Assembly (NCBI GenBank): GCA_964016885.1
Contig: OZ024743.1
Span: 238,080,001 to 238,144,000 of the forward strand
Source of the DNA: Eledone cirrhosa
Taxonomy: Eukaryota
DNA length: 64,000 nt
Reading direction: 5' to 3'
Shown here: positions 3,792 through 25,744 of the stretch, one piece after another
How the letters are laid out: every line of letters starts with the position of its first letter
Numbering within the stretch: the first letter of the stretch is position 1
Notes under the pieces: generated by a model
Seen by the model: the letters and a program-made list of their open reading frames with translations, nothing else
The model's database searches: none
What the model was told of the DNA's origin: nothing
Made by a program: the position numbers and the translations under genes

Positions 3792-4265
3792 GTGTATTCC
3801 TGAATCTCCAAGGTGGCTTATTGGAAGAAAAGATTTCAGAGAAGCACAAACTATTTTAAAGAAAATTATGAAGAAAAATAAAATAGATCAGGAGGAAGTT
3901 TTTTATGATTTTACAAATAATTGTTTCTACTTTAGGCACAAGGCCAGCAATTACCCAGTGCATTACTGGTACTTTATTTTATCGACCCCGTAAGGATGAA
4001 AGGCAAAGTCAACCTCGACAGGATTTGAACTCAGATCGTAAAGGGACGTAACTATGCTGGAAAGCATGGCATCCGACCCTCTACCGATACTGCCAATCCA
4101 CCGCCCTTATGATTTTACAAATAATGAGGACATTTCATTGGAAAACAGTTTTCAACAAAATATACACGAGGAAAAAATATCAAAAAATGAGCGAAGCTAC
4201 AGTTTTATTGATCTGTTTAGAACATTCCGGCTTGCAATGATCACACTTAATATTTGTTTTAGTTG
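3792..4265 (+). pseudogene. SLC22-family (organic cation/anion transporter, MFS) internal exon, disrupted by a SINE
   Basis: ccag| acceptor and |gtaagt donor; translates CIPESPRWLIGRKDFREAQTILKKIMKKN...YSFIDLFRTFRLAMITLNICFSW, the central-loop signature of SLC22; the insertion adds an in-frame TAA at 3991-3993. Confidence 0.85.
3922..4106 (-). mobile_element. Full-length tRNA-derived SINE inserted in the exon
   Basis: A-box TGGCAGTATCGG, B-box GTTCAAATCC, central GCCTTTCATCCTTACGGGGTCGATAAAA (resembles the Meta-type SINE core), AATTATT tail; exact 19-bp TSD TTATGATTTTACAAATAAT at 3903-3921 and 4107-4125. Confidence 0.92.
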
Positions 4266-4314
4266 GTAAGTATGTCTTTGTTATATTCTTCAATGCCTCA
4301 TAACATATAGCTGT

Positions 4315-4495
4315 ATGGCAGTATCGGTAGAGAGTCGGACGCCATGATTTCCAGCATAGTTACGGCTCTTTACGGTCTGAGTTCAAATCCCGCCGAGGTT
4401 AACTTTGCCTTTCATCCTTTCGGGGTCGATAAAATAAAGTACCAGTAATGTACTGGGTATTTGCTTGCCTTGTACCAAAAGTAGAAACAATTATT
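4315..4495 (+). mobile_element. tRNA-derived SINE
   Basis: Same family: A and B boxes, central core, GTAGAAACAATTATT end. Confidence 0.88.
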
Positions 4496-4504
4496 ATATT
4501 ACTA

Positions 4505-4745
4505 TAATGTATTAAGTTATACATATTATAGCGCCCTTTAGAGGGGTATGGGGACACAATATTGATTTATTATACATATCATGGGGCCTGTTTGGTGGGG
4601 GTACAATGTTTAGGTGTATTATTGTATTACTGTAATGTTATACATATCATGGGGCCCTTTTAATGGACAACGTTTAGGTGTATTAAAGTATTATTGTAAA
4701 ATATTTAGTTATACATATCACAGGGCCCTTTTGGGGAGCAATGTT
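4505..4745. repeat. Degenerate minisatellite (~65-70 bp unit, ~4 copies)
   Basis: Recurring TTATACATATCATGGGGCC...ACAATGTTTAGGTGTATTA. Confidence 0.65.
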
Positions 4746-4849
4746 TTATGGCTTCATGCCCTCCTTCCTGGTATCAACCGTTTTTAGTCATCACCTCTTA
4801 CAAACTGCAGAGATATGGTGCACCTATTCAAAGCCAAGATACACAGTCA

Positions 4850-21769: not shown

Positions 21770-21915
21770 ACACACACACACACACACACACACACACACA
21801 CACACACACACACACACACACACACACACACACACACACACACACACACACACACACACACACACACACACACACACACACACACACACACACACACACA
21901 CACACACACACACAC
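21770..21915. repeat. (CA)n microsatellite
   Basis: Seen directly. Confidence 0.95.
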
Positions 21916-22515
21916 CACACATGTTTTCAACCTTCCAGCTTACTCTTTCTCATAACCTTACTCTTTCTTGATGAAGGACTAACATCCAATATGTTGAATC
22001 ATTCTTCATCCTTTTCCTGTAAGCATGAAACTAATAAGACTTTGTGTAATTGTATTTTTGTGTCTGTTTCCTTTTTTGAAATCTTGAATTATATATATTC
22101 AATAAAGAAACAAGATTATTGTTGAAATTAAATCATATATTAATTTTACATATGTTTCACTTACAATAAACAAAGTCAAGTGAGAGATATGTAAATAATA
22201 CATTGACAGAGAGTTATACTTGTCAGCTCTACAGTAATGAAATCTATATATAAATTTCTGCGATTCTGTCTCAACAGGTAGAGAGGAGTAGTTTGACTAC
22301 CTCATACTACTCCTCTCTCTTTATGTTTGCTGTGTGAATGTATGTGTGTGTAAAAAGAAGGAAGGAGATGGTGAAAAAACGTGTGTTTCTGTAAATGTAT
22401 GTGTGGTTTGTGTAAATGTATGTGTGTGTTTGTGTGAATGTATGTGTGTGTTTGTGTGAATGTATGTGTGTGTTTTATGTGAATGTATGTCCGTGAGTGT
22501 GTTTTTTTTTGTAAG

Positions 22516-22685
22516 TATGTCTGTGTTTGCGTATTTATATATTTATACATGTCTGTGTTTGCGTATTTATATATTTATACATGTCTGTGTTTGCGTATTT
22601 ATATATTTATACATGTCTGTGTTTGCGTATTTATATATTTATACATGTCTGTGTTTGCGTATTTATATATTTATTTGCGTATTTA
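22516..22685. repeat. 32-bp minisatellite (~5 copies)
   Basis: TGTCTGTGTTTGCGTATTTATATATTTATACA repeated; only one copy in the left arm. Confidence 0.85.
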
Positions 22686-24570
22686 TATTTATATACTTAT
22701 GTCAGCATTTATATTACTCTATATTTATTATTGTATTTCCACGGTAAACACTTTATCTCACATAATTATCTCACATAATGTCGAATATACAGGAATTTGA
22801 TATTATTTATTTTGAGAGCAATATCTTACATATATATGAATAGCCATTTACAGCCAGTTTGAACAGAAAAAGGTGAGAGAATTCTGGCCAGATACGGCTG
22901 GTTTTAATTGCTAAAGAGTTAAGGTCAGCAGTTTCCTAGTTTTATGTCCATACGGTGGAGTTCCTTCAAATTCCAATTGATTAAGACTATACTGGACACC
23001 AGGCACAGCTAGGGAGTTTATAGCTTCAATTCTATTCTGGACCATTTTAACACGTATAATATTCTTTCCTGATTTTGTTTTTCATTGACCATGCTGAATC
23101 CCTTTTCCTTCATTTACACCAAGATACTTAATGAAATCTCCCTTGATCCAGATCCATGATAGCAGTGTCATTATTAAATTGGGTTGAGGTAGGTAATAGC
23201 TGTCAATTTATCGTGTTTAAATGTAGCATTTGCACACTTATAGGTGGGCAAAGGAGGAGGACTCGAATTTTTAATGTGATATAGATATAATGTTGTTCAG
23301 TAATTTTCAAGAATGTCTTGCTAATTTAAAAGTTTATAGTACGTTTACAGACATTGCAAACATATGCTAATAAAGAGTAGTTTTTTATGTGATGCATTCA
23401 TAGTGTTGTTTTGTATTTTTCAATAATGCCTTGTTAATGTGGTTTCATGTGGTGTAAGATATTAAGCGTTAACCCTTTAGTTACCAACCCCGCTTTGGTT
23501 CTATAAAATAAAATCACCCATTTTAAAGGTTTCCAATTTAAACTAAAATCTTCCATATAAGAACCTTGCATTACGTTACTATCTTAGTAATGAAATAATT
23601 AATAATTTTAGTAAATCCCTCAAAATTCTTCATAAATTAATTAATTAAAATAGAGTGTATTTCATTAGAAACAGTCATGAAAGAATTAATTATTCCTTTC
23701 TAAACTCTATATAAAATATCTGGTTAAAAAAAACTTTAACTTAATCATAACCTCATTCTTGAGCCTGCACTACAAAAAACCCTACTCATAATTGTACATA
23801 ACTTAAATTTAAAGAATCAACTGACCCAAAACATACTTTCAGCTTCACCCTTTAGCATTTACATTACTCTATATTTACTATAGTATTTTTTGGGTAAAGG
23901 CTTTATTTTACATAATTATCTTACATAATATTGAATCTATGAGATTTTTATGATTTTATTTATTTTTGAGAAGAATACCTTAACGTCGATATGAGGGGCC
24001 GTTTACGACCAGTTTGAAGAGAAGGGGGAGATAATTCTAGCCGGATATGGACAGTTTAAATGCTAAAGGGTTAAAAGTTTAATCTTTATTTATCTGTCTT
24101 CTCACAAAATAATCCAATACTAACTACTAATGCTACAACTAATTTTAGAAGAAAAATTTAATATATCTGCTTATATCACTAAAGCTTAATAGTCTTTTAA
24201 ATTTTATTCTTGTTACATTTTTTATTCTTTACCTCTGTGGCTATACTGGGACATTGCATTCAGGGGTTTATTTCATTATAACTACAGCCACCACTTGCAA
24301 ACAAGTATGACTTGGTAGTATGAACCATGCTTTTGCTGAAGGTTTTAGGTGCTTGTACAGTGATGGCAGACACAAACAGCCTCTTGATCTTCCATTCTTT
24401 GACCTAGTAGATCAGAGGTTCTCAAACATTTTGTCACACCCTCACAGCCTATACACAAATTGTAAATAATATATAATAAATAATATCGTTAATTTATATA
24501 TATTAAATAATATATTATATACTTTGTATGAATAAATATATATATTTTTATTTACTATATTTATATATAA

Positions 24571-25744
24571 CTAGCAGTGGTACCCGGCGTTGTACAGGAT
24601 AAGGTATTTTGGAACGCGGGCCGCCAACAAACCTAATCGTGGAAAAACTGCATGCCTGGACAATATGTAAAGAAAATAAACCGAATACTCTGATGGCTGG
24701 ATAATCTTTAAGATTTTCCTCGATGAAGCAGGAAAAATGCAGGGATCAAGAAAATGAATTTTTTTTATGTGCATAATATCCCTTTAAATTTCGGGAAAAT
24801 CGGCTAGACGTAACGCCTCCAAAAAGCCCTAAGAAGCTGAAAAAATGAAGTTTTTCACCTAATGTGGGCCCTAGGCCATAAGGAAGCTGGATTTTCTTTG
24901 CTTACAGTATGAAGAAGAGACAGACTAATACATAGTTACAATTTCAAGGAAATCGGTGTGACGTAGCGCCTCAAAAAATCCCTAAAAATCTTTATAAATG
25001 GAGTTTTTCACCTAATGCGGGCTCTAGGAGATAAAAAAAAAGTTGACTTTGTTATGTGCATAACGCTCCCTGAAACATAAGTAATACATATGTAAAGTTT
25101 GAAAATATCGGTTGAGTACTTCTCGAGTTTCAGTGATTCAAACTCACACACACACACACACACACACACACACACACACACACACACACACACACGCACA
25201 CACACACACACACACACACACACACACACACACACACACACACACACACACACACACACACACAGACATCCTCAGGGAAGTGACGTAATGCAGACATACA
25301 GACATACAGACAGATATTATAAGGGCGCGACGTAGTATGTATGTATCTATCTAAAAAGAGAAAGACTAAGAATTATAGAGCGAGATCGGTAAATCGCCTA
25401 ATGCGGTCCCTAGGGCATTGAAAATTAAATTTGTTTTGCTCAGAACACTCCCTGAAACATAAGTATTACATGTGTAAAGTTTGAAAACAGTCAGTTTGGT
25501 GCTTCTCTACAATACTAAGCGGTAAAATAGTAACTTTTGTTCTGGTAGAGGCATGTAAGTAAGCAAACTGAAGCTATTACAGCGATGTTTTTCTTTACCG
25601 GCTTTTATTTTTAGTGTTGTGTGAAATATATAACCTGCAAATCTGATTTTTGAATCGCAGCAGGGTCGACTTTATTTCACTCGCTTCACTAAAGTTGGAT
25701 TTTCTTTGCCCACGGTATGAAGAAGAGACTGACTAATACATAGT
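24571..25744 (-). mobile_element. Non-autonomous Helitron, 5'-truncated mirror copy
   Basis: CTAG end at 24571 with hairpin; reverse complement of 7296-8369. Confidence 0.8.

Follow-up and report, generated by a model that had tools for sequence, protein, structure and literature searches.

Complementary SLC22 half-genes on opposite strands of Eledone cirrhosa DNA, probable remnants of a duplicated tail-to-tail gene pair

Based on the comparison of a 64-kb window (the whole 64,000-nucleotide stretch of Eledone cirrhosa DNA analysed here) with the DNA around it, we propose, with a probability of roughly 0.84, that the window brings together the 5′ part (exons 1–5) of a plus-strand SLC22 copy, Wp, and the 3′ part (exons 6–8) of a separate minus-strand copy, Wm, likely joined when deletions struck a tail-to-tail pair that had been duplicated in tandem. 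The locus is most likely birth-and-death debris of a gene family and not a flippable switch, and both halves are probably pseudogenes. An earlier note on this DNA had put forward one gene split across strands, with its last three exons in an invertible cassette, and had named convergent paralogues or an inverted duplication as other readings; the latter came close to being right, but the headline is not supported: the exons belong to two genes, and the cassette's interior is collinear, in unchanged orientation, with a sister pair upstream that has not been rearranged.

The window lies inside a cluster of alternating minus- and plus-strand SLC22 copies whose pattern recurs at intervals of about 200 kb; a tblastn exon map of 664 kb orders them as C(−), A(+), B(−), Wp(+) and Wm(−). 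Membership in the SLC22/OCT-like family is supported by 8 of 14 candidates that matched, all of them named Octopus OCT or SLC22 (E values of 6e-46 to 2e-18); Pfam gave no match for the 71-aa exon alone, and returned Sugar_tr and MFS_1 for the Octopus protein P0003. The Octopus SLC22/organic cation transporter-like proteins (P0002–P0009) share 61–74% identity over exon 6 and show colinear exon matches over residues 15–550, whereas the copies in the window are incomplete, their intact relative being gene A, a plus-strand copy 198 kb upstream with a coding frame open over 532 codons. At an offset of about 198–207 kb, the DNA from −125 kb to 13502 is collinear with that from −324 kb to −193.6 kb (1449 mismatches in 93,602 aligned bases, 1.5%, a unit identity of 98.5% by mismatches), and 14227–46501 is collinear with the B side (726 mismatches in 25,628 aligned bases, 2.8%). 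The duplicate includes non-genic DNA, as in a tandem segmental duplication, and its second unit carries the disabling lesions of pseudogenes, namely a SINE with stops and exon deletions.

Within the second unit, Wp starts outside the window, with exons 1–3 located 3–18 kb upstream and exon 4 beginning 143 bases before the first position, its 3′ end occupying 1..25 (+). Exon 5 of Wp (3792..4265, +; PESPRW...NICFS) is a copy of exon 5 of gene A with the splice borders ttccag/GTGTAT and TAGTTG/gtaagt, and measures 474 bp versus 270 bp in the intact paralogue. It contains a minus-oriented SINE-like insertion of 204 bp, a high-copy repeat at 3903..4125 with a target-site duplication of 19 bp (3903–3921 and 4107–4125) and in-frame stops at 3991, 3997 and 4039. 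This interruption is absent from the earlier note. The frame through the Wp exons is thus closed by stops in exon 5, unlike that of a functional SLC22 gene, and a transcript of Wp with flipped exons 6–8 would run into a stop at codon 333 of 601; on paper, two stop-free cryptic GT–AG routes lead past the SINE, from donor 3969 or 3990 to acceptor 4148. Compared with A, Wp differs by 11 replacement and 7 silent codons in 355, and Wm by 5 and 2 in 173, both counts being unpolarised and too few for a selection test.

The minus copy Wm retains exon 6 (19575..19789, −), exon 7 (18212..18320, −) and exon 8, its last coding exon (17141..17350, −), all three stop-free with intact canonical splice sites. 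The phases of Wp exon 5 and Wm exon 6 join as W-IVMSMLYYG, as had been read correctly from the letters, because one exon structure is common to all paralogues. It was likewise rightly observed that the window lacks a plus copy of exons 6–8 and a minus copy of exon 5; with exons 1–5 only in Wp and exons 6–8 only in Wm, neither strand carries an ordered gene. The Wm exons and the right arm together are the sister of the two upstream minus copies. The 3′ flank of Wm (14279..17140) is collinear with the B flank up to 16193, and its 16701–17140 part, on the 3′ UTR side, matches A and C. Exon 8 of Wm has a His codon, the base of the Pro codon being kept in all seven other exon-8 copies compared. The remaining upstream introns (25746..54419, −) are collinear with the minus copies B and C, without a counterpart of the C stretches that carry exons 3, 2 and 1. 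Upstream SLC22 exons on the minus strand past the window, for which the earlier note had proposed a search, did not appear: in the 238 kb beyond the right arm, exons 1–5 of A found no close minus-strand match, the sole match being one of 73% to exon 2 from a distant complete plus gene, and a genome-wide search with exon 5 found no copy beyond that arm. Between +120 and +180 kb lie divergent genes that were considered as the missing 5′ half and rejected, being complete on their own. Sequencing run X4 does not cover exon 7, which is neutral as to expression.

Between the two halves lie the inverted arms. The left arm (7296..11210, +) is part of Wp intron 5 and differs from the A intron at 7 of 2788 alignment columns (99.7% identity); the right arm (20831..25744, −) is part of Wm intron 5 and groups with the minus copy B. 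These arms of 3.9 and 4.9 kb, about 9.6 kb apart, match each other in inverted orientation far beyond chance, as flanking inverted repeats, and the substitutions and indels described earlier recur in five blocks of 88.7–99.4% identity: 7296–7788 with 25744–25239 (93.5%), 7759–9745 with 25168–23187 (92.0%), 9725–10054 with 23031–22702 (99.4%), 10539–10774 with 22566–22330 (88.7%), and 10773–11210 with 21269–20831 (98.0%). Between the arms, 93 of 2788 columns differ (about 97% alike) and large indels come in addition; their longest exact match is 221 bp. The deletion of about 175 bp noticed at 9724–9730 amounts to 177 bases extra in the right arm with AATTGA at each end, and this indel is common to the upstream paralogues, Wp sharing the state of A and Wm that of B. 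Among informative sites, counted in two well-aligned arm blocks, 67 of 68 pair the left arm with A and the right arm with B, with no switch point; a whole-arm alignment (345 versus 2 sites) was set aside for mis-alignment at 10055–10772. Chimeric repeats at the breakpoints, of the kind seen with F8 int22h, are not present. A 1.8-kb core of the left arm has four full-length copies, all in intron 5 of this cluster, which led us to reject the idea that one transposon accounts for both arms, although parts of them are repeats.

The inside of the cassette follows the sister pair as well. A-type intron 5 continues in unchanged orientation through 11211..13502 (+), where similarity to A ends; it includes retroelement-like ORFs at 11847–13139, for which Pfam found no family. 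The DNA that carries exons 6–8 in A is missing after 13502, and a junction from A-type to B-type DNA (13503..14278) replaces about 17.3 kb with a 9-nt repeated motif followed by a high-copy transposon-like repeat that is truncated on its left and closes with (TA)n. Both 11210–13502 and 14227–20830 align plus-oriented to the A/B pair, so that the inside is not reversed. A deletion junction at 25744..25746, which sets the outer limit of the right arm, takes Wm intron 5 directly into intron-3 sequence, exons 5 and 4 being removed. A usable 5′ half is found on neither side, the right having none and the left bearing stops, and the proposal that two 5′ halves share the 3′ exons is not supported.

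These features could be explained by the following series of events. An old inverted duplication would have produced a convergent gene pair, in which every homologous intron forms an inverted repeat, and a later tandem duplication may have copied this pair. A 17-kb deletion from Wp intron 5 into a transposon, probably through end-joining repair, would then have removed Wp exons 6–8, and separate deletions may have removed Wm exons 1–5.

It could be argued that the assembler set the two haplotypes of A/B one after the other, the second 200-kb unit then being no paralogue, and that Wp/Wm is a natural null allele of A made by the SINE and a deletion. The 98.5% identity of the units, a divergence (1.5%) within the possible range of alleles, the 99.7% match of the Wp left arm to the A intron and the lack of its full 1.8 kb outside the cluster all agree with this, but no gap separates the units, three minus copies (C, B and Wm) are too many to be alleles of a single diploid locus, and the Wm and B sides differ by 2.8% plus opposite exon losses, which makes the haplotype explanation improbable. 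A weak hint against it comes from a contig of run X1, in which Wm-specific bases occur with the ancestral base at 17157 (depth 6.9/13.1), suggesting two Wm-type alleles; the 7 other assembled copies compared do not explain this contig, and its depth is too noisy to serve as a copy number. A single sample, that of run X1, yields contigs of Wm-type, A-type and B-type DNA, which favours the main reading; neither the SINE ends nor the 13502 junction is bridged by any of those listed, which carries no evidential weight, and RAD-seq runs X7–X9, at a depth below about 2 reads on low-copy bins, are uninformative. Mis-orientation of the segment between the arms in the assembly, the true gene being contiguous, would fit with no arm being spanned by any read or contig examined (short contigs and RAD reads). 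However, the assembly is gap-free across 360 kb upstream and 200 kb downstream of the locus, the arms are readily distinguished and each is continued on either side by DNA of its own lineage, a turned segment would leave chimeric arms matching no paralogue, and the exon 5 stops would persist after turning; such an error is very unlikely.

Lineage-pure arms bear also on the two readings that involve recombination between them. A past exchange that flipped one gene's own exons 6–8, in the style of human F8 intron 22, draws some support from Wm exons 6 and 7, which are 99.1% and 100% identical to A, with exon 6 only 95.8% identical to B. In the exon 6–7 region, substitutions do not place Wm nearer B than A (1755 columns with 20 private sites in A, 22 in B and 15 in Wm), which has to be ascribed to gene conversion or to decay of B and gives an old exchange some room. 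But neither arm is chimeric, the left part of the inside is A-type and the right part B-type, both oriented as in the sister locus, and between exon 6 and the right arm the DNA goes with B instead of A. A past inversion in this haplotype is thus largely refuted by the lineage-pure arms, and we regard it as highly improbable. For an active or polymorphic cassette, in which recombination would set exons 6–8 behind either of two 5′ halves as an on/off switch, the geometry of arm length, spacing and compatible phase is permissive, and human inversions between repeats of 94% identity are reported (PMC3961182); yet the second 5′ half was not found, the sole one has stops in exon 5, the arms are far less alike than the int22h copies of human F8 (9.5 kb, 99.9% alike; PMC3211038), and repeated flipping would mix arms that are unmixed here, leaving this reading with next to no probability. 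Very improbable too is a rescue in some individuals or cells, where cryptic splicing or a SINE-free allele, combined with a flip in the 221–330 bp near-identical arm block, would rebuild a chimeric transporter; such a switch by DNA inversion would, if true, be a rarity among animal genes, and the evidence is against it.

Decay of a duplicated tail-to-tail pair thus best describes the locus, which represents ordinary gene-family turnover. Birth-and-death evolution of tandem gene families leaves pseudogene fragments after segmental duplication, and the present cluster resembles such families in its tandem units, in intact copies beside broken ones, and in loss through transposon insertion and deletion; it departs from them in that the unit is a tail-to-tail pair, and that deletion leaves complementary halves on opposite strands mimicking a split gene. 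The F8 intron-22 inversion (PMC3211038) also puts exons on opposite strands through an intronic repeat with an inverted partner and leaves chimeric repeats, whereas the arms here are non-chimeric with big indels and the halves come from two genes. KRTAP5-10/11 and AQP12A/B, inverted paralogues shown to invert in populations (PMC3961182), likewise provide inverted repeats by their opposite orientation; the present locus is known in one orientation and bears no record of exchange. Annotation of tail-to-tail paralogue arrays calls for caution, since one deletion can leave two complementary halves that lie between long inverted repeats with fitting splice phases and so mimic a split or invertible gene.

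In the parts of the literature consulted, no paper on such an SLC22 cluster expansion was found. As a side result, the analysis places a pair of young SLC22 clusters on the same chromosome of this octopus-like genome; the second of them (C4:77.9–78.3 Mb) supports the proposed layout, as it consists of two tail-to-tail pairs with complete genes and shows the same inverted intron matches.

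We propose, at a probability of roughly 0.84 and judging from sequence comparison, that the window contains the remains of two decayed convergent SLC22 paralogues. Exons are numbered one to eight, spanning residues about 18-550 of the Octopus protein P0003, with a short first coding exon outside this count, and positions outside the window are extended window coordinates (position on chromosome scaffold C4 minus 238,080,000). The flanks were read to 400 kb on the upstream side and 200 kb on the downstream side in a 3.0-Gb genome, with a single gap (200 N at -367 kb). On the plus strand, gene A (-215.9 to -188.9 kb) possesses all eight exons with canonical splice sites and 532 codons without a stop, copy D only exons 7 and 8, and Wp, which reaches into the window, exons 1-5 (-17.9 kb to 4265). 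On the minus strand lie C (-325 to -362.5 kb; exons 1-5, part of 6, and 8), B (-162.5 to -173.5 kb; exon 5 with a stop, 6 and 7) and, within the window, Wm (exons 6-8). The window exons named in the earlier note, plus 3792-4265 and minus 19789-19575, 18320-18212 and 17350-17141, were borne out with matching phases, and that at 19789 has eight protein matches among 14 candidates, 61-74% identical and every one named Octopus OCT/SLC22, on which basis the genome is termed octopus-like. In C (C4:237717000-237718300), intron 5 leads straight into the final third of exon 6, exon 7 is missing, and another 40 bp of exon 6 lie behind exon 8.

Two long collinear matches were seen: one pairs the stretch between -125 kb and 13502 with that between -324 kb and -193.6 kb, at 1449 mismatches over 93,602 aligned bases, and the other pairs 14227-46501 with the B side at -176 to -142 kb (726 in 25,628). 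Wp is therefore a duplicate of A, and Wm is sister to B and C. The window corresponds to the A-B tail-to-tail junction minus 17,263 bases, the part with A's exons 6-8. At the central junction, the A-type similarity ends at 13502, followed by a 9-nt motif occurring twice and then by a ~715-bp repeat, of which at least 39 further copies exist (94-98%); in the two of these examined the element extends further left and ends in (TA)n, and the junction copy is cut on its left side, its TA run abutting the B-type flank. A transposon would once have been located in the 3′ flank of Wm, and end joining would have closed a deletion running from the Wp intron into it, which agrees with the short templated repeat without being proved by it. 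This young non-coding repeat (13511-14278, ending in (TA)n) carries a CTGACGA...GAAAC motif (~14057-14106), which to us recalls a hammerhead ribozyme core. Farther right, a ~5-kb non-LTR retroelement occurs four times on one strand at 33300-53170, in the lost 5′ introns of Wm; the copies are 71-88% alike and largely common to B and C as well, and Pfam places RVT_1 and zf-RVT domains on 50420-52582. Fold-back tandem arrays of 595-bp and 474-bp units (99% identity, second half inverted) lie at C4:237897904-237902158, between genes A and B, and at C4:238178222-238182388.

The inverted arms noticed earlier do exist, as five blocks of 88-99% identity within 7296-11210 in Wp intron 5 and 20831-25744 in Wm intron 5, and the extra bases bounded by AATTGA number 177. 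Four full-length matches to the left arm's 1.8-kb core were found in the genome (40 candidates scored), namely the two arms and intron 5 of A and of B. Over two well-aligned blocks totalling 2788 columns, without 7296-7404, 10055-10772 and any column within 5 of a gap, 7 sites separate Wp from A, 93 separate Wp from Wm, and 51 separate Wm from B. The arm edges are not element ends; the inner edge is the point where A-type and B-type introns already diverge, and the outer edge of the right arm, at 25744, marks a deletion that joins intron 5 to intron 3 and removes exons 5 and 4. Within intron 5, 11029-13502 is retroelement-like, with direct repeats (11029-11198/11701-11870, 92%), ORFs at 11847-12839 and 12843-13139, an LYRDD motif and a Cys-rich nuclease-like part; the stretch resembles Penelope-like elements, Pfam gave no family for the ORFs, and a 67% relative lies at 57596-58887.

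Wp exon 5 is 474 bp, instead of 270 bp in three paralogues and 267 bp in B, a difference overlooked before; the excess is a 204-bp insertion flanked by a 19-bp target-site duplication. Since the inserted sequence is a repeat of high copy number (1575 candidates; best matches among 40 scored 93-98%) and bears on its minus strand what we take to be a tRNA B-box-like motif, we call it a SINE. It brings in-frame stops at 3991, 3997 and 4039; two stop-free GT-AG routes past them are predicted on paper, both ending at an acceptor (4148) whose pyrimidine tract is poor.

The earlier note had headlined one gene split across strands, with its 3′ exons in an invertible cassette, which is unsupported, while its alternative of convergent paralogues proved nearly right for Wp and Wm. 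A live cassette is scarcely credible, as joining Wp exons 1-5 to Wm exons 6-8 in silico meets a stop at codon 333 of 601, before the transporter's second half. The proposed search for upstream minus-strand exons found no close copy of exons 1-5 in the 238 kb past the right arm, and searching the whole genome with the end of exon 5 yielded nine matches, none rightward of the window's own; at +120 to +180 kb lie two divergent genes, each complete by itself. A past inversion through the arms is very improbable, because it would have made each arm mixed A- and B-type, and neither is; 67 of the 68 two-and-two sites among the four intron copies pair Wp with A and Wm with B, the 177-bp indel splits identically, and the inner side of each arm continues in its own lineage. 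Mis-orientation of the segment in the assembly, also raised before, is comparably improbable. That an uncollapsed haplotype stands here instead of a paralogous unit is unlikely, though the 1.5% unit divergence is compatible with alleles.

Against the proposal of two decayed paralogues count the open Wm exons with good splice sites and the exon 6-7 region, where over 1755 columns private sites (A 20, B 22, Wm 15) place the three at about equal distances and Wm exons 6 and 7 are nearer to A's than to B's; this pattern would follow if the convergent genes had undergone conversion or if B had decayed. Contigs from X1, one of three sequencing runs of one sample, which may be the assembled individual's, include an exact Wm-type exon 6 piece (19626-19757), a piece at 18882-19057 with two differences, fitting A, and a joint equal to B's 210-bp deletion. 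Therefore, the Wm, A and B types are all present as DNA in one sample. RAD runs reached less than about two reads of depth over the low-copy bins. Another contig has Wm-type bases over 17055-17198 except at 17157, at about half depth (6.9/13.1 in X1, 13.4/25.5 in X3, 10/10 in X2), and none of seven other assembled copies compared accounts for it (nine genome-wide; the 78.41 Mb copy, 88% identical, was left out of the alignment), a weak hint of two Wm alleles.

This locus resembles the birth-and-death decay of tandem gene families in its workings. It does not qualify as a repeat-mediated inversion and differs from the F8 intron-22 inversion, which uses 9.5-kb repeats, 99.9% alike, with chimeric repeats left behind (PMC3211038), whereas here the arms share no exact match longer than 221 bp and are not chimeric. 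A rare flip is nevertheless not impossible, since polymorphic human inversions are known between inverted paralogues, one with 7-kb duplications at 94% identity and a likely breakpoint within 782 bp at 99.9% (PMC3961182).

Five further exon-6 copies lie in a second SLC22 cluster at C4:77.9-78.4 Mb; over the 400 kb examined there, plus and minus genes, three with all eight exons, face each other, and their introns show inverted matches of 92-97%. The inverted arms are thus a by-product of the family's tail-to-tail unit. Octopus vulgaris models P0002 and P0008 look like fusions of partial tandem copies, with the PESPRW segment twice, which points to similar clusters in another octopus; a literature search leaving out most subscription papers found no paper on octopus SLC22 expansion. 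Exon 5 and intron-5 pieces of the family at the very start of C4 (1011-4790) may have been displaced in the assembly from the 78-Mb cluster. The unit of that cluster (77.91-78.41 Mb) is ~250 kb; exon 8 has an in-frame gap of 21 bp in the 77.914 Mb copy, and the exon 8 located at 78.161 Mb misses 20 bases around its stop.
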